Source: Clostridium sp. (GTDB taxonomy: Bacteria; Bacillota; Clostridia; Lachnospirales; Lachnospiraceae). Taken from it: DNA of 64,000 nucleotides. Each line of letters opens with the position of its first letter. Positions within the stretch are counted from its first letter, which is position 1. Under the pieces are notes generated by a model. That model worked only from the letters and a program-made list of their open reading frames with translations, did no database searches and had not been told where the DNA came from. Below, in pieces: positions 7,948 through 25,365 of the stretch. The position numbers and the translations under genes were made by a program. The DNA is taken from NCBI GenBank assembly GCA_018377235.1, contig JAGZZT010000001.1:192474-256473 (forward strand). The letters are read 5' to 3'.

Positions 7948-8001
7948 TGCAGCTTTGAAAGAACAACGAAACATCATTCCATTTTCTAAATAAAGGCAAT
8001 G

Positions 8002-8036
8002 AGACCAGTTCAAAAAAGAGCTGGTCTTTTTTATTA
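8002..8036 (+). terminator. Intrinsic terminator after pspA
   Basis: 'agaccag-ttcaaaaaagag-ctggtct' followed by 'tttttatt'. Confidence 0.7.
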
Positions 8037-8221
8037 ATTTTTTTAATTAAATTTCATTAGTTTGACTAATGTTTATTGATTATAAACAAAAAAAATTACA
8101 AAAACTCACAATATTCGACTAACAAAAGGACAACTGTCCTTTTCCTGTTTGTGGTTTCCCTATATAATAAACCTGCAAACAATACATAAATTCCCAATAT
8201 TTCATAAAAAAGAAAAACAGA

Positions 8222-9109
8222 ATGAAAAAAACAAAAATATTAATTGATACAGATTTCGGTGATGACACTGATGATACAGCGGCGTTCCGCCTGGCTCTTA
8301 CCTGCGGCTGTCTGGACATCATGGCAGTTACAACTGTATTTGGAGATACGAAAAAGCGCGCTGAGATGGTATTGGACTTTTTAAGTCTTTACGGGAAAAA
8401 AGATGTCCCTGTAGCGGCCGGGCATGGAAAGGCTCTGATTGAACGAGAGCACAGTGCTGGGGCAGATCCCATCCAGTACCCCATTATGAAAAACAGCCCG
8501 AAGGCTCCGGCTGATATCCTGGCAGAAGATTTAATCCTTCAATATGTCAGAGAAAATCCCGATCTTGTCATTTTGGCAATGGGAGCCATGACAAACATCG
8601 CCATGGCCTTTCTCAGGGAACCCGGGCTGATGCGCCATGTAAAAATCCTCGCCATGGGAGGCGCTTTTTTCGACGCAAAGCCTGAGTGGAACATTGCCTG
8701 CGATCCGGAAGCAGCCAGGCTTGTGATGGAGCAGTCTGAACATCTGATTCTGATGGGACTGGATGTGACAAAATACCTGAAAATAAGTCCGGATATGCTT
8801 GACAGCTGGAGAAGGCGAAAAGATCCGGTTATGAATTACTTTCTGGAGGGAGTTTCCCTGTTCCAGAAGGCTACCGGCTTTCCTGTCACCTTTCACGATG
8901 TGCTTTTAATCGCCTATCTGCTGGATCCGGAGGTAGTTTCCCTGCAGAGAGGCAATTATACGGTTGAGTTAAGCGGTTCCCTGACCCGGGGAACTCTGGT
9001 AAATCTCTCCAATTATTATGAAATTGACGCTCCAGAGGAAGGCCGCCTTTTATTTGCCGGCCATGTGGACACAAAACGATTCTTTCAGATTTTAAAACAG
9101 TATTTTTAA
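8222..9109 (+). CDS. Nucleoside hydrolase (inosine/uridine-preferring family)
   Basis: 295 aa. N-terminal Asp cluster 'ILIDTDFGDDTDD' is the IU-nucleoside hydrolase Ca2+-binding signature. Confidence 0.85.
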   Translation: MKKTKILIDTDFGDDTDDTAAFRLALTCGCLDIMAVTTVFGDTKKRAEMVLDFLSLYGKKDVPVAAGHGKALIEREHSAGADPIQYPIMKNSPKAPADILAEDLILQYVRENPDLVILAMGAMTNIAMAFLREPGLMRHVKILAMGGAFFDAKPEWNIACDPEAARLVMEQSEHLILMGLDVTKYLKISPDMLDSWRRRKDPVMNYFLEGVSLFQKATGFPVTFHDVLLIAYLLDPEVVSLQRGNYTVELSGSLTRGTLVNLSNYYEIDAPEEGRLLFAGHVDTKRFFQILKQYF

Positions 9110-9190
9110 CTTCACTTATTTTATGATTTATTTTAATCAAAAGCCAGAGCGCTTTCGATAGAGAAAACGATTATGAGGAGGACAATCACT

Positions 9191-10330
9191 ATGAAGAAAC
9201 TGACAGCCGCAGCGCTTGCTGTCTGCATGACTGCAAGTCTGGTAACAGGATGTTCCGCGCCGGAACCGGAGGAGACAACCGCTCCGTCCAAGGCAGCTGA
9301 AAGCGGAGCAGAGCAGCAGAAAGACGCAGAGACAGCAAACCCGGAGGACTACAAGGTAGCGCTTATGATTCCTGGAAACCTGGGAGACAAATCATTTTTT
9401 GACGCTTCCTTCCGCGCCATTGAGCCTATCGAGGAGCAGCTTGGCGTAACGGTAGACTATGTGGAGGCTGGACTGGACACATCCAAATATTATCCGGTTC
9501 TCGTGGATATGTGCGAGGCTGATTATGATTTAATTTTAACTATTTCCAGCAACAACGACGATGCCCTGGTTCAGGCAGCAGAGGAGTATCCGGATCAGCT
9601 GTTCATCAATCTGGACGATGAGCTTACAGACCCGCCTGCAAACGTATACATCATGGGAACAAAAAATAATGAGATGAGTTTCCTGGCAGGAGCAGCTGCA
9701 GCTCTCAAGGCAGAAGAACTTGGTGAGGATAAGATCGGCTTCGTAGGCGGTATGGATATTCCTGGAATCAACGAGTTCTTAGTGGGATATATTGAAGGTG
9801 CTCAGGCAGTTAATCCAGACATCAAGGTAGCAGCCTCCTATGTTGGAAGCTTTACTGATACAGCCAAGGGAAAGGAGAATGCCCTTCTTCTCTACAATTC
9901 CGGCCTTTCCGTTATTTTCGCGGCAGCAGGACAGTCCGGCCTGGGTGTGATCGATGCAGCTGTAGCTCAGAACAAATTTGCCATCGGCGTTGACTCCGAC
10001 CAGGCAGAAGCCTTAAAGGATACAAAACCTGAGATGGCAGGCGTGATTATCACTTCCGCTATCAAGAACATTCCTGAGAACGCTGTAAAAGCAGTAGACA
10101 GAGCCATGAAGGGTGAGATTCCATACGGAACAAGAGAGGTATTCGGAATCGCCGAGGGCGCTGTCGGCATTGCTGAGAACGAGTTCTATGAGACTTTACT
10201 GTCAGAGGAAGACAGAGCGAAAATCGAAGAGTTAAAGAACCAGGTAATTGCCGGAGAAATTGAGATGACTCCAACCACCGGTATTACCACAGAGAAGGTA
10301 AATGAAATCCGCGAGGCTGTACGCCCATAG
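9191..10330 (+). CDS. BMP-family ABC transporter substrate-binding lipoprotein (nucleoside-binding, PnrA/Med-like)
   Basis: Lipobox 'LVTGCSA'. BMP-family fold through the body. Start placed at ATG 9191 (MKKLTAAALAV), 11 nt after RBS 'aggagg'. The ORF track's 9173 start is less likely. Confidence 0.8.
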   Translation: MKKLTAAALAVCMTASLVTGCSAPEPEETTAPSKAAESGAEQQKDAETANPEDYKVALMIPGNLGDKSFFDASFRAIEPIEEQLGVTVDYVEAGLDTSKYYPVLVDMCEADYDLILTISSNNDDALVQAAEEYPDQLFINLDDELTDPPANVYIMGTKNNEMSFLAGAAAALKAEELGEDKIGFVGGMDIPGINEFLVGYIEGAQAVNPDIKVAASYVGSFTDTAKGKENALLLYNSGLSVIFAAAGQSGLGVIDAAVAQNKFAIGVDSDQAEALKDTKPEMAGVIITSAIKNIPENAVKAVDRAMKGEIPYGTREVFGIAEGAVGIAENEFYETLLSEEDRAKIEELKNQVIAGEIEMTPTTGITTEKVNEIREAVRP

Positions 10331-10347
10331 TTCACGGAGGTATCCTG

Positions 10348-11898
10348 ATGGAACACTATCTTTTGGAGATGAAAAACATCTCAAAAATTTATGGCAATGG
10401 GATTGCAGCAAACAAAAATGTCAATTTCAATCTGAAAAAGGGAGAGATTCACGCTCTGGTCGGAGAGAATGGAGCGGGAAAATCTACCCTGATGAAAATC
10501 TTATTCGGAATGGAACCGCCGTCATCAGGAGAGATCATATTAAGGGGAGAACCTGTCAGGTTCTCCTCTTCCAAAGATGCGATCGCTCATGGAATCGGAA
10601 TGGTGCATCAGCATTTTATGCTGGTGGAATCCTTTACGGCGGCTCAGAATATTATCCTTGGCATGGAGCCAAAAAAAGGACTTTTTGTCAGTGAGGAGGA
10701 GGCCGTCCGCTTCACAAAAGAAATCAGTAAAAAATATAATCTGGACGTAGACGCAGAAGCTGTTACCCAGACTCTTCCCGTAGGCGTAAAACAGAAAATA
10801 GAAATTTTAAAGGCTCTGGCCAGAGGCGCAGAGATCCTGATTCTGGATGAACCGACCGCTGTGCTGGCTCCTCAGGAGACAGACCAGCTCTTCGACGAAC
10901 TCATTAATCTGAAAAAGCAGGGACACACCATTGTGTTCATTTCCCATAAAATTCCCGAAATCAAACGGATTTCCGACCGCATCACAGTTATGAGAGCCAG
11001 CCAGTTCGTAGGCTGCTGCGAGACAAAGGATGTAACGGAGCAGGAAATTTCAGCCATGATCATGGGCTGTGAGATGGATACCTCCATCCAGAAAACGATC
11101 CCCAAGCCTGGCGACAGAAAAATTCAGGTCAAAAACCTGTCCTACACCGATAAAAATCAGGTCAGGCTGCTGAACAACATTAATTTCAGCGTCCGGGGCG
11201 GTATGATTTTCGGAATTGCCGGTGTCCAGGGAAATGGACAGGTGGAGCTCGTAGAGCTGATGACAAAAAAGAGGATGATAAAAGACGGAGATATTCTTCT
11301 GAACGGGACATCTGTAAAGAACCTGTCCATTGAGCAGATCCGCCGAATGCAGTTCGGTTATGTGCCGGAGGATCGTATGGAGCAGGGTATTGCAGGACAG
11401 GAATCTATTGCAGAAAATATGGTTTCAAACCGGTACAGCAGCAGGGAATTCTGCCGCGGAGGCCTTCTGAATTATAAAAAAATACTGAAATTTGCAGAGG
11501 ATCGCATTAAATCTTACGAGATACGCTGTTCCGGCACTGGGCAGAACGTGGGAATGCTGTCTGGCGGAAATATGCAGAAAGTAGTCGTAGCCAGAGAATG
11601 CAGCCACAGCCCTGAGGTGCTGATTGCAGAACAGCCTACCAGAGGCGTGGACATCGGAGCAGCCCACATTATCCATAAGAAAATGATGGAGCTGAGGGAT
11701 CAGGGCTGCGCTGTGCTTTTAATCTCTGCTGATTTAAGCGAGGCATTAAAGCTCTCGGATGTGATCGCCGTTATGTACGAGGGAGAAATTGTGGCTTATT
11801 TTGACAATACAGAAGGACTGAATGAAGAAAAGCTGGGACTTTACATGCTGGGACTTGAAAGGCACAGCGAAGAACAGATAAGGAGGGCAGAAGGGTGA
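10348..11898 (+). CDS. ABC transporter ATP-binding protein, duplicated ATPase domains (sugar/nucleoside type)
   Basis: 516 aa. Walker A 'GENGAGKST' in the first half. Signature 'LSGGNMQKV' and Walker B in the second half. Typical partner of BMP-family binding proteins. Confidence 0.9.
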   Translation: MEHYLLEMKNISKIYGNGIAANKNVNFNLKKGEIHALVGENGAGKSTLMKILFGMEPPSSGEIILRGEPVRFSSSKDAIAHGIGMVHQHFMLVESFTAAQNIILGMEPKKGLFVSEEEAVRFTKEISKKYNLDVDAEAVTQTLPVGVKQKIEILKALARGAEILILDEPTAVLAPQETDQLFDELINLKKQGHTIVFISHKIPEIKRISDRITVMRASQFVGCCETKDVTEQEISAMIMGCEMDTSIQKTIPKPGDRKIQVKNLSYTDKNQVRLLNNINFSVRGGMIFGIAGVQGNGQVELVELMTKKRMIKDGDILLNGTSVKNLSIEQIRRMQFGYVPEDRMEQGIAGQESIAENMVSNRYSSREFCRGGLLNYKKILKFAEDRIKSYEIRCSGTGQNVGMLSGGNMQKVVVARECSHSPEVLIAEQPTRGVDIGAAHIIHKKMMELRDQGCAVLLISADLSEALKLSDVIAVMYEGEIVAYFDNTEGLNEEKLGLYMLGLERHSEEQIRRAEG

Positions 11899-12938
11899 GC
11901 AGAGAGCGTTCATTTAACATCATAAGAACCGCCGTTTCCATGCTGGTGGCAATCCTGGTGGCTTTTGTCATTATCCTGCTGGTCAGCGATCAGCCAGTGG
12001 AATCCATTAAAACCTTCCTTTTGGCACCGTTTTCTTCCAAACGATACCTGGGAAACATTGTGGAAACAGCAGTTCCCCTTATTTTTTCCGGTCTGGCCAT
12101 GGCGGTTATGTTTAAGGCCAATCTGTTTAACCTGGGCGGAGAGGGTGTATTCTTCATATCTGGAATCGCCGGATCCTTCTTAGCAATCTGGCTGAAAATG
12201 CCTCCTGTTTTATTTCCCATCGCCTGTATCGCTGCGGGAGCTGCAGCCGGTATGATCATTATGCTGGTTCCAGGCGTATTGAAAGCAAAATATGGAGCCA
12301 ATGAGATGGTAACCTCCCTGATGATGAACAATATTCTCCTGGGAGTTGGTCTGTATCTATTAAATAACGTCATGCGCGATCCGAAAGTAGCGTCCCTGGT
12401 ATCTTACAAGTACCGTTCCAACGCTGTTCTTTCTAATATCGTGCCGGGAACCAGAATCCACTCCGGCTTTCTGATTGCCATTTTATGCGCAGTGCTGGTA
12501 TACCTGTTTATGTTCAAGAGCAAATGGGGCTATGAAATCCGCATGACTGGAAATAATGCAAAGTTTGCCAGCTATTCCGGTATTAACGTAACTAAGGTGA
12601 TTATTATCGTCCACCTGGCGGCAGGCGCCATCGCCGGAGCCGGAGGAATCATCGAGTGTATTGGCATGCATAAGCGGTTTGAGTGGACAGCTCTTCCCGG
12701 TTACGGCTTCGATGGCGCCATGATTGCCATGCTGGCTGGAAATAACCCGCTGGGCGTTATTGGGGCAGCTTTTTTTGTCAGCTACCTGCGGATTGGAGCA
12801 GATCTGGTGAATCGTTCCTCTGATATTCCTACAGAGATGATCGCGATTCTTCAGAGTATTATTATCCTGCTTATTTCAGCAGAACGGTTCCTGCACAAAT
12901 ACAAACAAAACTGGATTGAGAAGGAGGTGAAGGGATGA
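11895..12938 (+). CDS. ABC transporter permease (BMP-system, first permease)
   Basis: 347 aa polytopic. GTG start overlaps the upstream stop (GTGA). Confidence 0.8.
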   Translation: MSRERSFNIIRTAVSMLVAILVAFVIILLVSDQPVESIKTFLLAPFSSKRYLGNIVETAVPLIFSGLAMAVMFKANLFNLGGEGVFFISGIAGSFLAIWLKMPPVLFPIACIAAGAAAGMIIMLVPGVLKAKYGANEMVTSLMMNNILLGVGLYLLNNVMRDPKVASLVSYKYRSNAVLSNIVPGTRIHSGFLIAILCAVLVYLFMFKSKWGYEIRMTGNNAKFASYSGINVTKVIIIVHLAAGAIAGAGGIIECIGMHKRFEWTALPGYGFDGAMIAMLAGNNPLGVIGAAFFVSYLRIGADLVNRSSDIPTEMIAILQSIIILLISAERFLHKYKQNWIEKEVKG

Positions 12939-13852
12939 AAGCGCTTGCAGACCTGATTTTTACCAGTGACTTTTTCTACTCAATTTTTCGTGTGGCCACA
13001 CCCCTTCTGTTTGCCTCCATGGGAGCAGTTGTATCTGATGTGGCCGGCGTTCCGAATATTGCCCTGGAGGGCATGATGCTGATTGCCGCCTTTGCGGGAA
13101 TGTATTTCAGCTACCTGTTTGGAAGCGCCTGGGCCGGACTGGCCTTCGCCATCCTCTTCGCCGTGCTGGCTGCGGGAGTACTGGCCTTCTTTACCCTGTA
13201 CTATAAAACTAATATCATTTTAGGCGGCATTGCCATCAACAGCCTGGCCAGCGGAGGAACCATCTTCTTCCTCTATCTGGTAGCCCATGACAAGGGTACC
13301 AGTGTGGCCCTCACCAGCAAGGTGCTGCCAAATATCAATATTCCGATTATCGAGCAGATTCCGATTATCGGACCGGCCATATCCGGCCACAACGTGCTTA
13401 CCTACCTGTCGATTCTGGCAGTGGTATTCACCTACCTGCTCTTGAAGAAGACATCACTTGGATACCACATCCGCGCAGTTGGAGAGAAAAAAGAGGCGGC
13501 GGATTCTGTGGGCATCAGTGTGATGAAGACTCAGGCAGCCGCGCTTTTGATCAGCGGCGTTATGAGTGGTCTCGGCGGAGCTTTCATGTCCATGGGCTAC
13601 GTGTCCTGGTTCTCCAGAGACATGGTCAGCGGCCGTGGATGGATTGCTCTGGCAGCCGAAGCCATGGGGCAGAGAGGGGCAATTGGTACAGCCGCCACTT
13701 CTCTGTTATTTGGTGTGGCAGACGCCCTGTCAAACGCAGTGGCGACCCTGGGATGGCCGTCTGATCTGGTTAAGACCATTCCTTACTGTGCAACCCTCAT
13801 CGGTCTGGCTGTCTTCTCCATTAGAGCCTGCAGAAAAATGAAACGGGCGTAA
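12935..13852 (+). CDS. ABC transporter permease (BMP-system, second permease)
   Basis: 305 aa polytopic. ATGA overlap with the upstream gene. Confidence 0.8.
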   Translation: MKALADLIFTSDFFYSIFRVATPLLFASMGAVVSDVAGVPNIALEGMMLIAAFAGMYFSYLFGSAWAGLAFAILFAVLAAGVLAFFTLYYKTNIILGGIAINSLASGGTIFFLYLVAHDKGTSVALTSKVLPNINIPIIEQIPIIGPAISGHNVLTYLSILAVVFTYLLLKKTSLGYHIRAVGEKKEAADSVGISVMKTQAAALLISGVMSGLGGAFMSMGYVSWFSRDMVSGRGWIALAAEAMGQRGAIGTAATSLLFGVADALSNAVATLGWPSDLVKTIPYCATLIGLAVFSIRACRKMKRA

Positions 13853-13880
13853 CCGCCTAAACAGTAAAAGGAGGACTGAC

Positions 13881-15377
13881 ATGGCATCTTTTGATATGAC
13901 AAACGATATCCTGTACACCATCAAAAATCCTAAGGTTACCTTTAACCAGAGATTAAAGGACATGGCAAAGATTGCAGAAAATTCCATCGAACTGGTAGAG
14001 TATACGGAAAAATCAAAGGAATACTTTGCAAACGGCGCCATGATGGATATGTTTGAGGGAAAAACTCCCTACCGCACGCGCTACTGCGTGCCGGACTACG
14101 AAAAATTTTTAAAGCAGGGAAGTGAATTTCTCATGCTGAAGCCGCCCAAGGATATCTGGGACGCAGTGGGAAATCTTCTCTGCCTGTACCATAACATCCC
14201 GGCAGACGGCGGGCTTCCCGTTTACATTGGAAACCTGGGAACACTTCTGGAGCCGTTTGTAACAGATGAGGCCGAAGCAGAAAAAGCAATCCGCTTCCTG
14301 TTAGTTCATGTGGACCGGACTATCTCCAACGCCTTCTGCCACGCCAATCTGGGACCAGAGGACACAAAGGCCGGACGCATTGTCTTAAAGCTGACAAAGG
14401 AAATGCAGAGACCATGTCCGAATATGACGCTTCTTTACAGAGACGATACTCCTGACAGCTTCATACTGGCAGCTCTGGATACAGCCATGACAGCGGCCAA
14501 GCCAAGCTTTGCCAACGATAAGATCTACCGCAGAGAAATGGGAGACTATGCAGTTGTCAGCTGCTACAATACTCTGCCTATCGGAGGCTGCGGCCTGACG
14601 CTGGTTCGTCTGAACATGAACCGGCTTCCTGAGCTTGCAAAGAGTCCTGAGGATCTGTTAGAACGTGTTATCCCTGACGCAGTGACAGCTGTCTGCGACG
14701 CCATTGACAGCCGCTGCCGCTTTATTGTAGACGAATGCCATTATTATGAAAATAATTTCCTCTACCACGAAGGCCTGATTCACAAAGAGAAAGACTACAT
14801 GGTAGGAATGTTCGGCTTTGTGGGACTGGCAGAGTGCGTAAATAAGGCATTGGGCCTGACTGAGCCGGGCGAGCGCTACGGACATAACGAGAAAGCAGAC
14901 GCCTTTGGAGAGGCAATTATGGATCGCATCCGGGCAGAGATTAACAAGCGGCCAGCGGCCTATGGAAAATACGGCCTTCACGCTCAGGTAGGCGTTATGG
15001 AGGATACAGAATCCACGCCAGGCGGCAGAATTCCAATTGGCGAGGAACCGGAACTTCCCCTTCAGATTCAACATTTCACCCGGATGCACAAGGGCTGCGA
15101 TGCCGGCTGCGGAGAGCTGTTCCCCTTTGACCATACAGTGGAGAACAATCCGCAGTATCTCCTCGACATCCTGAAGGGAGCCTTCTCCACTGGAACCAGA
15201 TACCTCTCCTTCTATTCCGGAGATTCTGATCTGGTGCGCGTCACCGGATACCTGGTAAAGCGCTCTGATATTGAGAAATTCAACCAGGAGCAGATGACCT
15301 TAAACGAGGCCACTGTCAACGGCGCTGTCGTTGATAAAAACCTTCATCTCCTGGACAGAAAGGTGCGTGGAAACTAA
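13881..15377 (+). CDS. yjjI: Short glycyl-radical-enzyme-like protein (YjjI/DUF3029-type), C-terminal glycine-radical motif 'RVTGY'
   Basis: 498 aa. C-terminus 'DSDLVRVTGYLVKRSD' matches the Gly-radical fingerprint of PFL-like enzymes (RVSGY). Size (about 500 aa rather than about 800) and pairing with a dedicated activase fit the YjjI family. RBS 'aggagg' lies upstream. Confidence 0.65.
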   Translation: MASFDMTNDILYTIKNPKVTFNQRLKDMAKIAENSIELVEYTEKSKEYFANGAMMDMFEGKTPYRTRYCVPDYEKFLKQGSEFLMLKPPKDIWDAVGNLLCLYHNIPADGGLPVYIGNLGTLLEPFVTDEAEAEKAIRFLLVHVDRTISNAFCHANLGPEDTKAGRIVLKLTKEMQRPCPNMTLLYRDDTPDSFILAALDTAMTAAKPSFANDKIYRREMGDYAVVSCYNTLPIGGCGLTLVRLNMNRLPELAKSPEDLLERVIPDAVTAVCDAIDSRCRFIVDECHYYENNFLYHEGLIHKEKDYMVGMFGFVGLAECVNKALGLTEPGERYGHNEKADAFGEAIMDRIRAEINKRPAAYGKYGLHAQVGVMEDTESTPGGRIPIGEEPELPLQIQHFTRMHKGCDAGCGELFPFDHTVENNPQYLLDILKGAFSTGTRYLSFYSGDSDLVRVTGYLVKRSDIEKFNQEQMTLNEATVNGAVVDKNLHLLDRKVRGN

Positions 15378-16213
15378 TGGATATCACGGCTCCGGTCAAT
15401 AAAATTATCCCTTTCAGCAGTGTAGACGGATTTGGAAACCGTACTGCAGTCTTTCTTCAGGGCTGTAACCAGAACTGTCTTTACTGCCACAATCCGGAGA
15501 CCATTCATATGTGCAGAAACTGCGGGGCATGTGTAAGCGCATGTCCCGCAGGCGCGCTTACGATGGAAAACGGAATTGTTTCTTATGATTATTCCAAATG
15601 CTGCAGCTGTGACACCTGTCTGAAAACATGTCAGTTTGACTCCTCCCCCAAGATAAGGAATATGACTGCCCTCCAGCTGTATGAAGAAATCCGCAGTTTT
15701 TTTCCTTTTGTAAACGGCATTACAACCTCAGGAGGAGAGTGCAGTCTTTACCTTGACTTTTTAAAAGAATTCTACACGCTGGTCCGCGCAGATGGAAAAA
15801 CCGCTTATATGGACACTAACGGGCAGATTCCTCTGTGGGAGAGAGAGGACGTGCTGGCAGTAACTGATAAAACCATGATCGATCTGAAGGCAGGAAGTGA
15901 GGAAGATCACCTCCGCCTCACCGGAAGAGGTCTGTCTGTTGTCACAGAAAACATCCGTCAAATGGCTGCTATGGATAAGCTTTATGAAATCAGGACGGTT
16001 GTAGTTCCAGAAGTTGTGGATAACCTGAAAACTGTAAAACTTGGAAGCAGCCTGATTGCAAATTATCCCAATGTGCGGTATAAATTAATTAAATTCCGTC
16101 ATTACGGCGTCCGGAAAAATTTTGCATCCACAAGGGAGCCGGATGACGCCTATATGCAGATGCTGCGGGAGGCAGCGTTAAGCGCCGGAGTAAAAGATGT
16201 GCTGGTCGTTTAG
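15377..16213 (+). CDS. yjjW: Glycyl-radical enzyme activase (radical SAM with extra ferredoxin-like Cys clusters; YjjW-type)
   Basis: 278 aa. Radical SAM 'CNQNCLYCHN'. Additional 'CRNCGACVSACPAG' and 'CCSCDTCLKTC' clusters. The start overlaps the upstream stop as 'TAATG' (translational coupling). Confidence 0.75.
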   Translation: MDITAPVNKIIPFSSVDGFGNRTAVFLQGCNQNCLYCHNPETIHMCRNCGACVSACPAGALTMENGIVSYDYSKCCSCDTCLKTCQFDSSPKIRNMTALQLYEEIRSFFPFVNGITTSGGECSLYLDFLKEFYTLVRADGKTAYMDTNGQIPLWEREDVLAVTDKTMIDLKAGSEEDHLRLTGRGLSVVTENIRQMAAMDKLYEIRTVVVPEVVDNLKTVKLGSSLIANYPNVRYKLIKFRHYGVRKNFASTREPDDAYMQMLREAALSAGVKDVLVV

Positions 16214-16241
16214 CTGGATAAACCGTTTTTAGGAGGATACC

Positions 16242-16964
16242 ATGAATTTGAGGGAGCTCTGGAGAAAATACGATTCCTATAATCAATTTAATATTTCTGT
16301 ACTTCCTGAAGAAATCAAGACCCAGGGCGTTCATCTTTCCTACCCAGCCGGATCCGTTATCATAAATCTGGGGGATTTTCCCGATTATGTATATTTTATT
16401 GAATCCGGCGTAGCTCTGGGAACCAGAGAGTACAACGACGGAAATAATTATTTTTATTTCCGGATTACCAGTGAAAACGGCTCTGTCGGCCTGCTGGAGG
16501 TACTGGCCCGCAAGGAACAATGTGTCGCTACTGTGGTTGCAGAGACCGCAGTTACAGCCCTGCGCATCAGCTCTGCTGTTATCTATGAGTATCTGATGAA
16601 GCATGTAGACATGCTGTACCGCTGTACTTACATTGTTGCCAACGACCTCTATCAGCGTTCCGGCAACGACGGAATTCTATATTACCAAAAAGGGATAGAC
16701 AGGGTAAGATACTACCTGGTACAGCATTATCTTCTGCATGCCAAGGCAGAGCAGCCGCTGATGGTGCAGACCGACTATCAGACTATCGCCAGCAATATCG
16801 GCGTCAGCGTCCGGACTGTAGTGAGAAGCGTCAGCCGCTTAAAGGAGCTGGAGGAAGTTTCTGTCTGTAAAAAGAAGATAACGATTTCTCATTGTCAATA
16901 CCAAAAGATGCAGGCAGCCATCCGTCTGCTGATTCCATCTGAAACTTTAGGTATTCCTTTTTAA
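16242..16964 (+). CDS. Crp/Fnr-family transcriptional regulator (cNMP-binding fold + C-terminal HTH; no FNR Cys cluster)
   Basis: 240 aa. N-terminal beta-roll-like region. C-terminal HTH 'IASNIGVSVRTVVRSVSRLKELEEV'. Confidence 0.65.
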   Translation: MNLRELWRKYDSYNQFNISVLPEEIKTQGVHLSYPAGSVIINLGDFPDYVYFIESGVALGTREYNDGNNYFYFRITSENGSVGLLEVLARKEQCVATVVAETAVTALRISSAVIYEYLMKHVDMLYRCTYIVANDLYQRSGNDGILYYQKGIDRVRYYLVQHYLLHAKAEQPLMVQTDYQTIASNIGVSVRTVVRSVSRLKELEEVSVCKKKITISHCQYQKMQAAIRLLIPSETLGIPF

Positions 16965-16993
16965 TAATCTGGCATCATTTTTAGTGAAGGAGC

Positions 16994-18343
16994 ATGATAA
17001 AAATGAATCGGAATAATCATCCATATGAATTAACAGAACGATTTCCATTGATCCGTCCAATGTCTCAGGGAAAAGAAATTTTCTGGAGCAATGACAGGCT
17101 GACAGATGCCTGCTCCGCACTCCAGCAGCTGCCTTTTTCAGCGGCAGATATAGAGAATGCAGAAAAAAGATGGACACGCTTTGCTCCTTTTATAAAAAAG
17201 GCTTTTCCTGAAACCGAAATGACAGATGGAATAATAGAATCTCCTCTCCTTGAAATCAGTTCAATGAAGCATGTTCTGAATGAATCGTTTCATGCAAATC
17301 TGAGGGGACGCCTTCTGCTGAAAATGGACAGCCACCTGGCAGCAGCAGGATCAGTGAAGGCAAGAGGAGGTATCTATGAAATTCTCAAACATTCCGAGGA
17401 TCTGGCTCTGTCCCAGGGTATGATACGTCCAGGTGAAACTTATGACGCCTTTTGCAGCCCGGAATTTCGGAAATTCTTCAGCAGTTATTCAATTCATGCC
17501 GGTTCTACAGGAAATCTGGGACTGTCTATTGGCATAATCAGCGCTGCATTAGGATATAACGTGACCATACATATGTCTATGGACGCTAAGGAATGGAAAA
17601 AGAAGCTGCTCCGTGAAAAAGGAGTCCGTGTGATAGAATATGCTTCCGACTACAGCGAAGCAGTTAAAGCAGGGAGAGCACAGGCAGAACAGGATCCTAT
17701 GAGCTATTTTGTGGATGATGAGAACTCTGCCAATCTGTTCCTGGGCTATTCCACAGCTGCCAGACGTCTGAAGAAACAGCTGGATGATATGGGAATCACA
17801 GTAGACCGATCCCACCCTCTGTTCGTCTATCTCCCCTGCGGCGTAGGAGGGGCTCCTGGAGGCATCACCTTCGGTCTGAAACAGATTTTTGGAGATTCCG
17901 TTCACTGTTTCTTTATAGAGCCTGTCCAGGCCCCCTGCATGGCGTTAGGCGTCATGACTGGTCTTCACGATGAAATCTGTGTTCAGGATATTGGTCTTTC
18001 CGGCCTTACGGAAGCAGATGGCCTGGCGGTAGGACGGCCTTCAAAATTTGTTGGAAAACTTATTTCCCCTCTGCTGGACGGAGAGTTCACTGTCACAGAC
18101 GAACATTTATACCGCTATCTGCGTTCTTTTATGGATGCAGAAGCCATGTTTATTGAACCCAGCTCCTGCGCTGCCTTTCAGGGCCCGGCAGTTATCTGTT
18201 CCAGTCTGGAATGCCATAAATTTTTGCTAAATCATGGGCTGGATCAGAACATGGATCAGGCCGTCCATATTGCGTGGGCAACTGGAGGAAGCCTGGTACC
18301 AGAAGAGATCCGAAAACAATATTATGAAAAAAGCTTAAAATAA
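16994..18343 (+). CDS. dsdA: D-serine ammonia-lyase (D-serine dehydratase)
   Basis: 449 aa, colinear with E. coli DsdA: 'RFAPFIKKAFPET', 'LLLKMDSHL', PLP-lysine motif 'GSVKARGGIYE', 'GSTGNLGLSIGI', 'LFVYLPCGVGGAPGG', 'HCFFIEP'. Confidence 0.9.
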   Translation: MIKMNRNNHPYELTERFPLIRPMSQGKEIFWSNDRLTDACSALQQLPFSAADIENAEKRWTRFAPFIKKAFPETEMTDGIIESPLLEISSMKHVLNESFHANLRGRLLLKMDSHLAAAGSVKARGGIYEILKHSEDLALSQGMIRPGETYDAFCSPEFRKFFSSYSIHAGSTGNLGLSIGIISAALGYNVTIHMSMDAKEWKKKLLREKGVRVIEYASDYSEAVKAGRAQAEQDPMSYFVDDENSANLFLGYSTAARRLKKQLDDMGITVDRSHPLFVYLPCGVGGAPGGITFGLKQIFGDSVHCFFIEPVQAPCMALGVMTGLHDEICVQDIGLSGLTEADGLAVGRPSKFVGKLISPLLDGEFTVTDEHLYRYLRSFMDAEAMFIEPSSCAAFQGPAVICSSLECHKFLLNHGLDQNMDQAVHIAWATGGSLVPEEIRKQYYEKSLK

Positions 18344-18357
18344 ACAGGCGTATCCTC

Positions 18358-18386
18358 TTGACAAACGCAGGTTTGTTTTGTATAGT
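18358..18386 (+). promoter_or_regulatory. Sigma-A-type promoter (ttgaca-17-tatagt) downstream of dsdA, upstream of the pflA leader
   Basis: 'ttgaca aacgcaggtttgttttg tatagt'. Confidence 0.55.
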
Positions 18387-18443
18387 GAAACTATCATATG
18401 ACTGACGGAAGTGGAATAAACCACATGAAGTATGATTTTAAAA

Positions 18444-18490
18444 AGCCGACCGTCTGGGCAGTCTGCCTGGAGGTTTGGCTTTTTTTGTTT
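18444..18490 (+). terminator. Terminator-like hairpin + U7 tract inside the pflA 5' leader (putative attenuator or small RNA 3' end)
   Basis: 'aagccgacc-gtctgggcagtctgcctggag-gtttggctt' followed by 'ttttttt', about 60 nt downstream of the promoter and about 100 nt before the pflA ATG. Confidence 0.4.
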
Positions 18491-18591: not shown

Positions 18592-19311
18592 ATGACAAAA
18601 GGATACATTCATTCCTGGGAATCTATGGGGCTGGTAGACGGTCCTGGTATCCGCACAGTAATTTTTCTGCAGGGGTGCCGCCTCAGATGCCAGTACTGCC
18701 ATAATCCCGACACCTGGGATATAGACGGCAGGGCAGAGACGAAAACCCCGGAAGAAATCATAGCTGTTCTAAACCGTTTTAAACCCTATTACGGCACAGA
18801 TGGAGGAGTGACCTTCTCCGGAGGAGAACCTCTCCTTCAGAAGGAATTTTTAACCGAAACCCTGGCCCTGTGCAAAAGCCATGGAATTCACACCTGTCTC
18901 GATACGGCGGGAGTAGGAACGGGAAGCTATGAGGAAATTCTGAAACATACGGATCTGGTGCTCTTCGACATGAAGCATTACACCAGGGAAGGTTATTTCA
19001 ACATCACAGGACAGCCCATAGATGAAAGCCTTCGGTTTCTTCACGCTGTGCAGAAGCTTAATATTCCTGTCTGGATTCGGCATGTAGTTGTTCCCGGACT
19101 TACAGACAGCAGAGAGCACCTTCTGGGATTGTTTGAATCAGTCAAAGAGGTTAAAAACGTGAAAAAAGTAGAGCTTCTTCCTTACCATGTACTGGGTGTA
19201 CCGAAATATAAGGCTATGGGAATCCCCTACAGATTGGAACATGTCCCTCCCCAAAATGCTGCGGAATTGGAACAATGGCAGAACATGATGAATGAATATT
19301 TTCAAAAATAA
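18592..19311 (+). CDS. pflA: Pyruvate formate-lyase activating enzyme
   Basis: 239 aa. 'VDGPGIRTVIFLQGCRLRCQYCHNPDTW' is almost identical in pattern to E. coli PflA. 'VELLPYHVLG' is also present. Confidence 0.9.
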   Translation: MTKGYIHSWESMGLVDGPGIRTVIFLQGCRLRCQYCHNPDTWDIDGRAETKTPEEIIAVLNRFKPYYGTDGGVTFSGGEPLLQKEFLTETLALCKSHGIHTCLDTAGVGTGSYEEILKHTDLVLFDMKHYTREGYFNITGQPIDESLRFLHAVQKLNIPVWIRHVVVPGLTDSREHLLGLFESVKEVKNVKKVELLPYHVLGVPKYKAMGIPYRLEHVPPQNAAELEQWQNMMNEYFQK

Positions 19312-21694: not shown

Positions 21695-22005
21695 TGCTAT
21701 TCTGGAAGTAATTAAATGAATACAAAAGCTATGACGAAGACAGAGTCTGCAATGTGTTTTACAGAGAGTCGGGAAAGCTGGAATCCGATAAACATTAGCT
21801 GATATCTCTCATCACTTCCGAGCTGAATTTCCGAAACGGATAATTGGAGTAAGAATTTTCGTGTTGGCTACGTTAGTGTCTAGGGCTTGCTGGAGCCTAA
21901 AGAGAGGCAGAATTTTTTATTCTGCAATTTGAGTGGTACCGCGGGTATTGATTTAATGATCAGGACTCGTCTCAAGGAAATCTTTGAGACGAGTCTTTAT
22001 TTTTT
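21695..22005 (+). ncRNA. T-box riboswitch leader upstream of brnQ
   Basis: Candidate promoter 'ttgaca-17-tattct' at about 21666-21694. 'AGAGAG' stem-I element, 'AGUA' and 'AGUG' elements. Conserved T-box sequence 'AATTTGAGTGGTACCGCGGG' at about 21925-21945. Terminator 'caggactcgtctcaaggaaatctttgagacgagtc' + 'tttattttttt' ends about 12 nt before the RBS. Confidence 0.75.
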
Positions 22006-22016
22006 TGTAGGAGGAA

Positions 22017-23354
22017 ATGAAAATGAATTTATCACGGAAAAAGATGCTATTGGTAAGCTTCATGCTGTTCTCTCTGTTTTTTGGAGCCGGAAACCTGATT
22101 TTTCCGCCATTTTTAGGGCAGAATGCAGGGGCAGCAGCAGTTCCCGCACTTTTAGGATTTCTGCTGACTGCTGTGGTGCTTCCAGTTCTCGGAGTTATTG
22201 TTGTCGCTCGTTTTAACGGTCTTGACTGTCTGGCAAACCAGGTAGGAAAAAATTTTTCTCTTGTATTCACCGTTTTAATCTATCTTTCTATCGGACCCGG
22301 GCTGGGTATTCCGAGAGCCGCATCTGTGCCATTTGAAATGGCTGTAGCTCCGTACCTTCCGGAAGGGGCAGATATAAAGCTTTTCATGGTTCTGTATTCT
22401 TTTGTATTTTTTGCACTGGCTTTCTGGCTCTGCATGAACCCGGGAAAGCTTGTCAGACGAATTGGAAGCTTTTTAACGCCAAATCTGTTATTGCTTCTCG
22501 GCATACTGTTTTTCAGCTTCCTTTTCAGGGGAAAAGTAGAGGTAGCGGCTCCTCAGGCTGCATATGAAATGCCGTTTTTCAAGGGTTTTTCAGAAGGATA
22601 TCAGACAATGGACACCATCGCAGCCCTTAACTTCGGGCTGGTAATTGCCATTACCCTTGACTCCTTTGGGTTAAAGGAAAAGAAGGATGTTATGAAGCAT
22701 ACGGTATATGCAGGAGTATTGGCCGGTTCTATTCTCGCTCTTGTTTACATCATGTTAGCCTATATGGGAATGTGCAGTTCCGGCGTTTACGCTGTACAGG
22801 AGAATGGAGCATGGACTCTGCGCCATATTGTATCGCAGCTTTTCGGTGAATTCGGAGCGGTTATCCTGGCAGCTATTTTCTCACTGGCCTGCCTGACCAC
22901 CTGTGTCGGACTCATCAACTCCATCTCACAGTTCTTTTCAAAACAGTTCCAGTTCTTTGGATACAGACAGTGGGTAATTACGATTACAGGTTTTTCATTT
23001 TTAGTCTGCAATCTGGGGCTGAACGCTATATTAAGCCTTTCCATCCCGGTACTTGATGCGATTTATCCTGTATCTATCGTGCTGATTCTTCTGGGATTAT
23101 CTCATCGTATATGGACGTCAAACCGGTATGTATACCCTATGGTTGTTGCAGGAGTCAGCTGCGTCAGCGTGATTTATGCGCTTGATAATGCTGGGCTTTC
23201 CCTTGGATTCCTCTCAGATTTATGCCATTCACTGCCTTTATATGATGCTGGTTTCTGCTGGGTAAGCGCCGCGCTTGTCATGCTTGTACTGAGCTGTGCT
23301 GTAAACGCCGCTTTAAACAGCCGCGCAGCCGCATGTCCGGAAAGCCAGAATTAA
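22017..23354 (+). CDS. brnQ: Branched-chain amino acid transport system II carrier (LIVCS family)
   Basis: 445 aa, 12 TM. N-terminus 'LFSLFFGAGNLIFPPFLG' is the BrnQ signature. Confidence 0.85.
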   Translation: MKMNLSRKKMLLVSFMLFSLFFGAGNLIFPPFLGQNAGAAAVPALLGFLLTAVVLPVLGVIVVARFNGLDCLANQVGKNFSLVFTVLIYLSIGPGLGIPRAASVPFEMAVAPYLPEGADIKLFMVLYSFVFFALAFWLCMNPGKLVRRIGSFLTPNLLLLLGILFFSFLFRGKVEVAAPQAAYEMPFFKGFSEGYQTMDTIAALNFGLVIAITLDSFGLKEKKDVMKHTVYAGVLAGSILALVYIMLAYMGMCSSGVYAVQENGAWTLRHIVSQLFGEFGAVILAAIFSLACLTTCVGLINSISQFFSKQFQFFGYRQWVITITGFSFLVCNLGLNAILSLSIPVLDAIYPVSIVLILLGLSHRIWTSNRYVYPMVVAGVSCVSVIYALDNAGLSLGFLSDLCHSLPLYDAGFCWVSAALVMLVLSCAVNAALNSRAAACPESQN

Positions 23355-23502: not shown

Positions 23503-25365
23503 ATGAGAAAATTAGCGTTAAGTGATGAAATACTTCTAAGCGTTCAGCAGCCCGCCCGATACATCGGCGGAGAAGTAAACATGGTGAAAAAGGATCCAGC
23601 AGGAAAAATCCGCTTCGCCATGGCCTTCCCGGACGTTTATGAGCTGGGCATGTCCCACCTGGGAATCCAGATTCTCTATGACATGTTCAATAAACGGGAG
23701 GATGTTTACTGCGAGCGTGTCTACTCTCCATGGATGGATCTGGATCAGATTATGAGGGAAAAACACATCCCTCTTTTCGCTCTGGAATCCCAGGATCCTA
23801 TTAAGAATTTCGATTTTCTGGGCATTACTCTCCAGTACGAAATGTGTTATACCAATGTGCTACAGCTTCTGGATCTGGCTCATATTCCGCTGCATGCCTG
23901 TGACAGAACAGAGGAGGATCCGATTGTCATCGGCGGCGGTCCCTGTACTTACAATCCGGAACCTATCGCTGAATTCTTTGATCTCTTTTACATGGGCGAA
24001 GGAGAGGTTGTTTACTTTGAACTCTTAGATCGCTACAAGGAAAACCAGGCCAAAGGCGGCAGCAGAAGAGAGTTTTTAGAAATGGCGGCAGAAATTCCAG
24101 GTATCTATGTGCCCGCTTTTTATGACATCCTCTACAAAGAGGATGGTACCATTGAACAGATGGTTCCCAATAATCCCCATGCAAAGGAAATTATTTCCAA
24201 GCAGCTGGTAATGGAAATGAACGATACCTATTACCCAGAACAGCCTGTAGTTCCTTTTATCAAGGCTACTCAGGACCGTGTAGTACTGGAAATTATGAGA
24301 GGCTGCATCCGCGGCTGTCGTTTCTGCCAGGCAGGCATGGTTTACCGCCCTGTGAGGGAGAGAAGTCTGGAAACTTTAAAAGATCTGGCTTATAAAATGC
24401 TGAAAAGCACAGGGCACGAGGAGATCTCCTTAAGCTCCCTGAGTTCCAGCGACCACACACAGCTGGAGGGACTGGTCAATTTCCTGATTGACGAGTTTGA
24501 CGGTAAGGGTGTAAATGTCTCCCTGCCTTCCCTGCGTATTGACGCTTTTTCCCTGGACGTTATGAGTAAGGTTCAGGATATCAAGAAGAGCAGTCTGACC
24601 TTCGCGCCTGAGGCTGGTTCCCAGAGGCTGCGAAACGTTATCAATAAAGGACTGACAGAGGAAGATATTCTTCACGGTTCCTCAGAGGCATTCAAAGGCG
24701 GCTGGAATCGCGTTAAGCTCTACTTTATGCTGGGGCTTCCTACCGAGACAGTGGAAGACATGGAGGGAATCGCTCTCTTAGCTGAAAAAGTAGCGGAAGA
24801 GTATTATAAGGTTCCAAAGGAGCAGCGCTTCGGCAAGGTGCAGGTAGTTTCCAGTACCTCCTTCTTCGTTCCGAAGCCATTTACTCCATTCCAGTGGGCG
24901 ACTATGTTCACTAAGGAAGAGTACCTGAAGAAAGCCCATATCGTAAATACAAAAATGAAAGAAATGCTGAACCACAAGAGTCTCCGCTATAACTGGCATG
25001 AGGCTGACGTTACCGTTTTAGAGGGCGTTATGGCCCGCGGCGACAGAAAAGTGGCTACTGTTATTGAAGAGGCCTATAGAAACGGCGCTCTCTACGATTC
25101 CTGGTCAGAGAGCTTTAAAAATGACGTATGGATGAATGCCTTTGAAACCTGCGGCATAGATCCTGATTTCTACACCCTGAGAGAACGGTCTCTGGACGAA
25201 GTTCTCCCGTGGGATTTCATTGATGCCGGCGTTTCCAAGGAATTTTTAAAGAGAGAATGGAACCAGGCTCTCCACGAAACTGTCACGCCAAACTGCAGGC
25301 AGAAATGTTCCGCCTGCGGCGCACTGAAATATAAAGGAGGCGTCTGCTATGAAAATAAGAATTAA
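23503..25365 (+). CDS. B12-binding-domain radical SAM protein (TIGR03960-like, rng-associated)
   Basis: 620 aa. Radical SAM 'CIRGCRFCQAG'. N-terminal B12-binding-like region. Conserved position upstream of the DUF2344 protein and RNase G. Confidence 0.7.
   Translation: MRKLALSDEILLSVQQPARYIGGEVNMVKKDPAGKIRFAMAFPDVYELGMSHLGIQILYDMFNKREDVYCERVYSPWMDLDQIMREKHIPLFALESQDPIKNFDFLGITLQYEMCYTNVLQLLDLAHIPLHACDRTEEDPIVIGGGPCTYNPEPIAEFFDLFYMGEGEVVYFELLDRYKENQAKGGSRREFLEMAAEIPGIYVPAFYDILYKEDGTIEQMVPNNPHAKEIISKQLVMEMNDTYYPEQPVVPFIKATQDRVVLEIMRGCIRGCRFCQAGMVYRPVRERSLETLKDLAYKMLKSTGHEEISLSSLSSSDHTQLEGLVNFLIDEFDGKGVNVSLPSLRIDAFSLDVMSKVQDIKKSSLTFAPEAGSQRLRNVINKGLTEEDILHGSSEAFKGGWNRVKLYFMLGLPTETVEDMEGIALLAEKVAEEYYKVPKEQRFGKVQVVSSTSFFVPKPFTPFQWATMFTKEEYLKKAHIVNTKMKEMLNHKSLRYNWHEADVTVLEGVMARGDRKVATVIEEAYRNGALYDSWSESFKNDVWMNAFETCGIDPDFYTLRERSLDEVLPWDFIDAGVSKEFLKREWNQALHETVTPNCRQKCSACGALKYKGGVCYENKN

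Follow-up and report, generated by a model that had tools for sequence, protein, structure and literature searches.

The 64-kb stretch of Clostridium sp. contig JAGZZT010000001.1 analyzed here (hereafter the window) carries a gene pair encoding a short glycyl radical enzyme (GRE) of the YjjI family and its activase YjjW. The key finding is that genes for nucleoside uptake and cleavage adjoin yjjI repeatedly. The link recurs in no fewer than three phyla and seven different arrangements, and the gene sets involved are of three kinds that are not homologous to one another, namely a Bmp-type ATP-binding cassette (ABC) importer with a nucleoside hydrolase, the transporter NupC, and deoCABD. Since recurrence through unrelated gene sets and arrangements is hard to explain by inherited synteny, we propose that YjjI and YjjW work within an anaerobic nucleoside-utilization operon and perform a radical step on a nucleoside-derived compound, a reading to which we assign a probability of about 0.62. 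The association is not universal and is bound to particular clades.

To our knowledge, YjjI is the only GRE of Escherichia coli without an assigned reaction, and the family is common in gut Firmicutes and Enterobacterales. Its repeated wiring to nucleoside uptake and cleavage narrows the candidate substrates to nucleosides, pentoses, pentose phosphates and nucleobases, and points to Enterocloster and Lachnoclostridium as organisms with yjjI inside a nucleoside operon. The analysis also supplies a candidate regulator-operator pair and places E. coli yjjI in the DeoR/CytR/CRP control region. A reaction on the ribose moiety would add a new kind of radical chemistry to anaerobic nucleoside catabolism, with a bearing on how nucleosides and purines are turned over in the gut; should the link be spurious, the pair only adds another copy to an orphan family that is already annotated.

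The YjjI/YjjW pair and its association with nucleoside genes

Judged by family models, the two open reading frames are a genuine YjjI GRE (498 aa) and a dedicated YjjW activase (278 aa). YjjI scored 578.3 bits on TIGR04040 (cutoff 498.3), with residues 9–496 covering profile positions 2–497, and 670 bits on PF11230 (formerly DUF3029), while YjjW scored 341.5 bits on TIGR04041 (cutoff 250.2). The E-values of 1e-173 and 3.5e-102, both from matches above the curated cutoffs, exclude a chance match and bear out the initial annotation, which had called the pair YjjI/YjjW-like from the sequence alone. The closest YjjI relatives (81–98% identity) were found in Lachnoclostridium, Enterocloster and other Lachnospiraceae genomes and metagenome-assembled genomes (MAGs), and E. 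coli YjjI is about 36% identical over its full length. The family is very compact, with 62 matches at E ≤ 1e-30 among 1.84 billion representatives of 50% identity clusters, about 20–25 of them full-length. The window pair is an ordinary member of this annotated but orphan family; the substrate was said to be unassigned, and a preprint of August 2026 still lists YjjI as an uncharacterized putative GRE (bioRxiv 10.64898/2026.08.13.742689).

The C-terminus of YjjI reads DLVRVTGYLVK, with Gly456 as the radical glycine. Alignment of 82 sequences from five or more phyla (Bacillota, Fusobacteriota, Lentisphaerota/Victivallales, Chloroflexota and Pseudomonadota) showed 44 invariant positions. They include S227, C228 and N230 of the S-C-Y-N cysteine loop and R453, G456 and Y457 of the R-V-x-G-Y glycine loop (82/82 each), so that the Arg, Gly and Tyr of the glycyl radical fingerprint LVRVTGY noted initially hold across these sequences and both the radical Gly and the catalytic Cys are present. 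Further invariant polar residues are R67, H154, N181, K207, N212, R243, E297, H367, Q369, D375, R383, E389 and R440. Two cysteines mark the clade of the window (clade A, defined below): Cys69 was present in 14 of 14 clade-A sequences and replaced by Val or Ile elsewhere, and Cys237 was present in 13 of 14, the other clades having Gly. Gly456 aligns with Gly465 of E. coli YjjI, a residue that a radical-trapping probe labeled in living cells (bioRxiv 10.64898/2026.08.13.742689). A stable glycyl radical on the window protein is predicted from family chemistry, and this labeling lends it indirect support.

YjjW contains the radical S-adenosylmethionine (SAM) motif CNQNCLYC (C30-x3-C34-x2-C37), followed by two ferredoxin-like clusters, C46-x2-C49-x2-C52-x3-C56 and C75-x2-C78-x2-C81-x3-C85, and Fer4 dicluster models from Pfam (Fer4_7, Fer4) matched the protein. 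On NrdG models it reached 35–68 bits against cutoffs of 126–131. The two extra Cys clusters had been read correctly from the sequence, as had the overlap of the yjjI stop codon with the yjjW start codon (TAATG, 15374–15379).

A nucleoside hydrolase and a BMP-type importer had been reported before the pair and a Crp/Fnr regulator after it, and domain models recovered all of them. The substrate-binding protein has Treponema pallidum TmpC (2fqw, E 1.7e-35) as its best solved relative, which we take to be the purine-nucleoside receptor PnrA, and the ABC system is predicted to import a nucleoside on the strength of its family assignment. Homology of the hydrolase to the IU family is clear: its best relatives in the PDB are IUnH and RihA, and its cluster representative matched PF01156 with 190 bits.

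The survey of yjjI neighborhoods drew on GTDB representative genomes, from which the best 80 of about 600 YjjI loci (44–98% identity) were taken. Open reading frames were called and clustered by all-against-all BLASTP, and cluster representatives were annotated; 83 loci were clustered and about 98 examined in total. YjjW adjoined YjjI in 71 of the 83. The other recurrent neighbors were an ABC ATPase (45/83), permeases (33/83), a Bmp binding protein (31/83), an inosine-uridine (IU) nucleoside hydrolase (22/83), a LacI-family regulator (15/83), a 195-aa protein of unknown function (13/83), a Crp/Fnr regulator (12/83), a ribokinase and an adenosine deaminase (7/83 each, above the cutoffs of TIGR02152 and TIGR01430, respectively), an MtaD/DadD-like aminohydrolase and a DeoD-like purine nucleoside phosphorylase (PNP; 6/83 each). 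Nucleoside genes were strongly enriched beside yjjI. Strand and distance statistics within the loci served as an internal control: 69 of 75 nucleoside genes lay on the strand of yjjI, a module gene was the immediate neighbor in 31 of 37 positive loci, and the density of nucleoside genes fell to 1 in 130 genes at ranks 9–12. After dereplication of the 80-locus set, at least one nucleoside gene was found in 8 of 19 lineages at 70% YjjI identity and in 23 of 57 at 90%.

Two module types carry most of this signal in relatives of the window. Clade A, to which the window belongs (∼80% identity), has the order [adenosine deaminase]-hydrolase-Bmp-ATPase-permease-permease-YjjI-YjjW with an adjacent Crp gene. 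Clade B (∼52% identity) has LacI-YjjI-[YjjW]-[aminohydrolase]-[hydrolase]-ATPase-permease-permease-unknown-Bmp, an architecture confirmed by independent gene calls with precomputed Pfam labels. Both modules are present in Enterocloster aldenensis and E. hominis. Identity between the two is 54% for YjjI, 46% for the ATPase, 35–37% for the permeases, 35% for Bmp and 24% for the hydrolase; all components are thus deeply diverged, which indicates an ancient linkage that survived gene rearrangement. Other nucleoside arrangements were seen in Oscillibacter, Dysosmobacter, an Oscillospiraceae MAG and Bacillales MAGs, and Leptotrichia has hydrolase-ribokinase-YjjI-YjjW. In a further locus, found through its Pfam labels, a gene of the nucleoside deoxyribosyltransferase family and a PNP gene come after YjjI-activase-ABC-Bmp.

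No YjjW was found by tblastn within 10 kb of ten clade-B YjjI loci (L028, L029, L030, L032, L033, L035, L036, L057, L089 and L090). In E. aldenensis and E. hominis, the sole YjjW in the loci examined belongs to the clade-A module, pointing to a single activase shared by the two YjjI paralogs of these species.

Two other neighbor groups are recorded as observations. The unknown clade-B protein, encoded between the second permease and Bmp genes, is a soluble helical protein of about 195 aa with faint MgsA_C similarity only (L021–L035; L057, 16706–17293; L068; L089–L092). Clostridium-type loci (L037, L046, L047, L058, L060 and Clostridium L041–L065) flank yjjIW with genes for a small kinase-fold protein, a HisJ/PHP-type phosphatase, a YfcE phosphodiesterase, an HD-domain protein, a Na/Pi cotransporter and QueT. 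These may reflect a phosphate/nucleotide theme or local synteny; their restriction to a few lineages does not allow an interpretation. M50 peptidase, PilZ, histidine kinase, D-Ala-D-Ala ligase, GH25 lysozyme, acyltransferase, YitT, rubrerythrin, thiolase, VanW, BirA, Asn/Asp-tRNA synthetase, EPSP synthase and patatin/Omp85 genes were discarded as local synteny noise.

In E. coli, yjjI-yjjW lies divergent from deoCABD at a distance of 257 bp, in agreement with the adjacency put forward in the initial annotation. The DeoR operator palindrome occurs twice at this locus (L001, 8740–8755 and 9339–9354; chance expectation, 0.06 matches), once with a single mismatch 45 bp from deoC and once, 599 bp from the first, as an exact match within the coding sequence of yjjI. 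The yjjI start codon (8953) lies between operators O2 and O1, of which O1 is inside the gene, and their spacing equals the known deoP1–deoP2 distance. The distal deo promoter region accordingly overlaps the 5' end of yjjI in antisense orientation. CRP peaks from chromatin immunoprecipitation sequencing map to the deo-yjjI intergenic region and to yjjI itself (PMC4287617); together with the DeoR operators, they place the E. coli yjjI promoter inside the deo control region. In Edwardsiella and in a lineage with 79% identity to E. coli YjjI, deoDBAC lies on one side of yjjIW and a gene for a NupC-type concentrative nucleoside transporter on the other. In a Moellerella genome, which has no deo operon, a NupC gene precedes yjjI-yjjW by 69 bp on the same strand. 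Anaerobic induction of both yjjI and yjjW has been reported for Yersinia intermedia (PMC3792023).

Several observations weigh against a nucleoside role. The survey sample was biased toward relatives of the query, and its counts were controlled only by strand and distance within the loci. The expectation that the association would be conserved across phyla held in that it recurs across phyla and is near-constant in clade A (16 of 18 loci nucleoside-positive) and clade B (15 of 16). It did not hold for the family as a whole: in the largest clade (Clostridium, Cetobacterium, Victivallales and others) the link is missing in 39 of 43 loci, leaving four positive ones. No nucleoside genes were found within 7–9 kb in Providencia, a 67%-identity lineage, Vibrio, Aeromonas, Microbulbifer, a Chloroflexota bacterium record or Haliovirga. 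Proteus keeps the backbone radA-serB-ytjB-yjjI-yjjW without lplA-deo, which makes the yjjI-deo adjacency of E. coli specific to one lineage. In the window, the nine co-directional genes at 8222–18343, each separated by at most 63 bp or overlapping, appear to form one operon-like transcription unit, judged by spacing alone. The hydrolase stays below the equivalog cutoffs of the RihA, RihC and UriH models, and its N-terminal Asp cluster, DTDFGDDTDD, is one residue shorter than the canonical DxDxxxDD, so that the imported compound may be something other than a canonical nucleoside. Finally, standard nucleoside catabolism needs no radical step, and the reaction of YjjI is therefore not obvious.

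In one alternative, the association is genomic hitch-hiking and the substrate of YjjI is some other anaerobic metabolite without a tie to nucleosides, such as one linked to nitrogen or nitrate. It would account for most of the lineages outside clades A and B, which have no nucleoside neighbors, and the compactness of the family, with 44 invariant residues, suggests one universal substrate for which import is not needed. A study from 2011 proposed a role in nitrogen metabolism on the basis of an FNR-like motif and co-expression of E. coli yjjI with nar genes (PMC3228777). However, nar co-expression and the FNR-like motif are equally explained by general anaerobic induction and do not identify a substrate, and the nitrogen role was set aside on this ground. 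Hitch-hiking also leaves three non-homologous nucleoside gene sets adjoining yjjI in separate phyla, two anciently diverged modules that keep the linkage despite a rearranged order, and nucleoside genes that are immediately adjacent and on the same strand. We therefore regard it as unlikely, and retain the nucleoside-linked reading.

Candidate operator, regulator and surrounding features of the window

The features of the operon and of the downstream pfl unit are listed in Table 1. The operon leader contains a perfect palindrome that had been classed as terminator-like in a pattern scan. The consensus A(A/G)AGGAC-N4-GTCCTTT(A/T) was found at the same position in 12 of 12 aligned clade-A operon leaders, with TATAAT or TATACT about 20 bp beyond it. 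Its center lies ∼41.5 bp upstream of the putative transcription start, and -41.5 is the position typical of class II activation by Crp/Fnr-family proteins. The palindrome occurs once in the window and, among 93 loci, only at clade-A promoters apart from one match in L028, which is intragenic and was taken as chance. A Crp/Fnr gene stands next to yjjIW in 12 clade-A loci. The palindrome is probably the operator of this co-encoded regulator, a candidate activator. FNR-type oxygen sensing by this Crp-like protein was rejected, as its N-terminal Cys cluster is absent.

Table 1. Positions of the YjjI/YjjW operon, its control elements and the adjoining pfl unit within the window.
Feature	Position	Strand	Evidence or remark
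Intrinsic terminator closing the upstream PspA-like gene; upstream operon boundary	8001-8028	+	11-bp stem, then T-run
Candidate operator, perfect palindrome AAAAGGAC-AACT-GTCCTTTT	8124-8143		Conserved in clade-A leaders
-10 box (TATAAT) of the operon promoter	8163-8168	+	TATAAT/TATACT in all clade-A loci
Divergent IU-type nucleoside N-ribohydrolase	8222-9109	+	RihA, RihC, UriH models ~1e-31
Bmp/PnrA-family substrate-binding protein	9173-10330	+	PF02608, 203 bits
Tandem-domain ABC ATPase	10348-11898	+	PF00005 twice; 17-bp gap to binding-protein gene
ABC permease 1	11895-12938	+	PF02653; 4-bp overlap with neighboring genes
ABC permease 2	12935-13852	+	PF02653
YjjI-family GRE	13881-15377	+	Cys228 codon 14562-14564; Gly456 codon 15246-15248
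YjjW-family radical-SAM activase, two auxiliary ferredoxin-like clusters	15377-16213	+	TIGR04041
Crp/Fnr-family regulator	16242-16964	+	PF00027 cNMP-binding; HTH_Crp_2 on cluster representative
D-serine ammonia-lyase DsdA	16994-18343	+	NF002823, 644 bits; 29-bp gap after regulator
Near-consensus promoter of pflA-pflB unit	18358-18386	+	11/12 positions matched
ZMP/ZTP riboswitch (pfl motif)	18388-18466	+	RF01750, 58 bits vs gathering score 39
PflA	18592-19311		TIGR02493, 306 bits
PflB, 747 aa	19362-21605		TIGR01255, 1232 bits

No riboswitch or other Rfam element was found upstream of the YjjI operon. The last gene, dsdA, is possibly co-transcribed with it, to judge from its position; DsdA belonged to no recurrent neighbor cluster of related YjjI loci and, not being conserved there, was not used for functional inference. 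Canonical PflA/PflB had been described about 3 kb downstream as a separate system, and the genes do lie 2.4–3.1 kb from the YjjI/YjjW pair in a unit of their own behind a separate promoter and the ZTP riboswitch, two elements that mark the downstream end of the YjjI operon. With this riboswitch upstream of pflA-pflB, formate production would follow a folate and purine-stress signal.

Further along, a T-box leader (21722–21977, +; 97 bits, gathering score 93) precedes brnQ, which encodes a branched-chain amino acid carrier (22017–23354), and an uncharacterized B12-binding radical SAM protein of the TIGR03960 family (1053 bits) is encoded at 23503–25365 (+), a few kb downstream. The GC skew flips sign sharply at about 31.9 kb, where genes switch from the + to the - strand (convergent arms, ∼31.5–32 kb), a pattern that would fit a replication terminus or the edge of a large inversion.

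Fold, active site and candidate chemistry of YjjI

An AlphaFold2 model of YjjI, built with a 29-sequence alignment from which the E. coli row was left out, was confident (predicted local distance difference test score, pLDDT, 92.2; predicted template modeling score, pTM, 0.92). It shows the ten-stranded α/β barrel of GREs with opposed Gly and Cys finger loops. The top 13 Foldseek matches were class III ribonucleotide reductases (RNRs; E to 2.8e-16, TM-score to 0.76). Profile comparison with hhalign gave the reverse order, with a probability of 81% for E. coli YbiW and 31% for E. coli NrdD. The model thus points to a minimal, bare GRE barrel with a modest structural lean toward NrdD. A search of PDB sequences with the YjjI profile gave weak local matches to the Cys-loop region of pyruvate formate-lyase (PFL) only and no solved close relative. 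Among domain models, a PFL-like Pfam family matched residues 166–249 weakly and Pfam NRDD matched residues 235–360 in part (27.2 bits, cutoff 26.2), whereas neither an NCBIfam NrdD model nor TIGR01255 (formate C-acetyltransferase) matched.

In three alignments, C228 coincides with the catalytic loop cysteine of known GREs (PFL C419, NrdD C384 and the GCIE loop of YbiW), and R243 aligns with PFL R435. Ser227 sits at the position of PFL Cys418. In the hhalign alignment, DYAVVSCYNTL of YjjI faces DYAAIGCIETA of YbiW, with the invariant Asn230 at the eliminase Glu position. Since the Cys-Cys pair is absent, PFL-type C-C cleavage was rejected as the chemistry of YjjI, and since an invariant Asn replaces Glu, so was the Glu-assisted 1,2-elimination of known GRE dehydratases and lyases. 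Residues 411–498 contain no cysteine, and hence no C-terminal zinc ribbon of the NrdD type. Cys69 aligns beside the second catalytic Cys of NrdD (E. coli Cys175, T4 Cys79), in a stretch of low alignment confidence. By these comparisons, the active site of YjjI fits neither PFL, nor Glu-dependent eliminases, nor canonical NrdD.

The proposed pathway would begin with the Crp/Fnr-family regulator, which may bind the observed AGGAC-N4-GTCCT site at about -41.5 and activate transcription. The Bmp/PnrA-type ABC system would import a nucleoside, which the divergent IU-type N-ribohydrolase would split into base and pentose; the protein families are observed, and their substrates here are predicted. 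By family chemistry, the radical-SAM [4Fe-4S] cluster of YjjW, fed by the two auxiliary clusters, would cleave SAM and take a hydrogen atom from Gly456. The radical would then pass to Cys228, whose thiyl form would abstract hydrogen from a nucleoside-derived substrate, most likely a ribosyl or pentose moiety that is possibly phosphorylated. A pentose or pentose phosphate is probably the substrate rather than the base, because the ribokinase, PNP, DeoB/DeoC and deoxyribosyltransferase-family partners point to the sugar; Arg243 and several other invariant arginines would suit an anionic group. In the literature, we found no paper linking a glycyl radical enzyme to nucleoside catabolism.

A more specific possibility within this range is a glycyl-radical reaction not described before, on the sugar of a nucleoside or on a pentose phosphate, such as a 2'-deoxygenation or dehydration of the RNR type outside deoxynucleotide synthesis; we consider this unlikely. 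Its narrower form, in which YjjI is a minimal RNR-like enzyme that, by reduction or dehydration, strips a ribonucleoside or pentose phosphate of its 2'-hydroxyl and so feeds deoxyribose-type products to DeoC-like aldolases, is quite unlikely. If the broader possibility were true, YjjI would supply deoxyribose-type products for aldolase cleavage in anaerobic nucleoside fermentation and would represent a minimal lineage between class III RNRs and PFL-like enzymes, with Cys69 and Cys237 of clade A marking a reductase-like variant. Against the structural matches stand their modest margin and the preference of the profile comparison for YbiW; moreover, the C-terminal zinc-ribbon Cys motif and the ATP cone are both absent, a second Cys is not kept throughout the family, and the activase is of the ferredoxin-insert type and not of the NrdG type.

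Chemistry on the released nucleobase, at the purine or pyrimidine ring and not at the sugar, is improbable. The hydrolase does free a base, and the co-occurrence of adenosine deaminase and MtaD/DadD-like aminohydrolases fits purine processing, whereas ribokinase, PNP, deoCABD and the deoxyribosyltransferase-family gene relate to the sugar or the glycosidic bond. Genes for xanthine dehydrogenase or for ring opening did not recur in the surveyed neighborhoods, and we know of no GRE that acts on a heteroaromatic base. That YjjI is a truncated pyruvate or ketoacid formate-lyase paralog is very improbable: the weak PFL-like match and R243 are set against Ser227 in place of Cys418, unmatched formate C-acetyltransferase models and the canonical PflA/PflB already encoded in the window. 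Taken together, our results favor a radical step on a nucleoside-derived compound, with the sugar as its probable target.

Comparison with known systems

YjjI shares the GRE barrel, the RVxGY glycine loop and an equivalent of Arg435 with PFL. It differs in having Ser for Cys418 and in its size, 498 aa being 67% of the 747 aa of the window PflB; the initial annotation had put it at about 60% of PFL-like enzymes, and it is indeed well shorter. In addition, YjjW has two extra clusters where PflA has none, and pflA-pflB is under separate ZTP riboswitch control. The GRE 1,2-eliminases compared (E. coli YbiW, PflD, glycerol and propanediol dehydratases, CutC, HypD and IslA) are about 300 residues longer than YjjI, and the G-C-x-E loop of YbiW contrasts with S-C-Y-N, Asn230 standing for Glu. 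Class III RNR NrdD is 13–15% identical to YjjI. The latter lacks the C-terminal zinc ribbon, ATP cone and specificity site of NrdD, the second catalytic Cys of NrdD is not conserved throughout the YjjI family, and curated NrdD models do not match YjjI; its activase is of the large ferredoxin-insert type, unlike the small NrdG without auxiliary clusters.

Among nucleoside scavenging modules built on a PnrA/Bmp ABC system and an IU-nucleoside hydrolase, we know of none described with a GRE. Among solved proteins, the binding protein of the window is nearest to T. pallidum TmpC, and related YjjI loci add hydrolase, deaminase, ribokinase and PNP partners. The window hydrolase differs in being divergent, with a variant Asp motif.

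The nearest known counterpart is the E. coli pair, which belongs to the same curated families and is identical in the S-C-Y-N motif of the Cys loop and the R-V-T-G-Y motif of the glycine loop. It also has an overlapping and translationally coupled activase with two ferredoxin-like clusters, and adjacent nucleoside catabolism genes. The partners differ, being deoCABD in E. coli (NupC in its relatives) and a Bmp-ABC importer with an N-ribohydrolase in the window. With respect to the cysteines of YjjI, C69 and C237 are extra in the window clade, and C153 and C319 are present in the window protein and absent from that of E. coli. The E. coli pair is divergent from deo, whereas the window pair is co-directional with its partners inside the operon.

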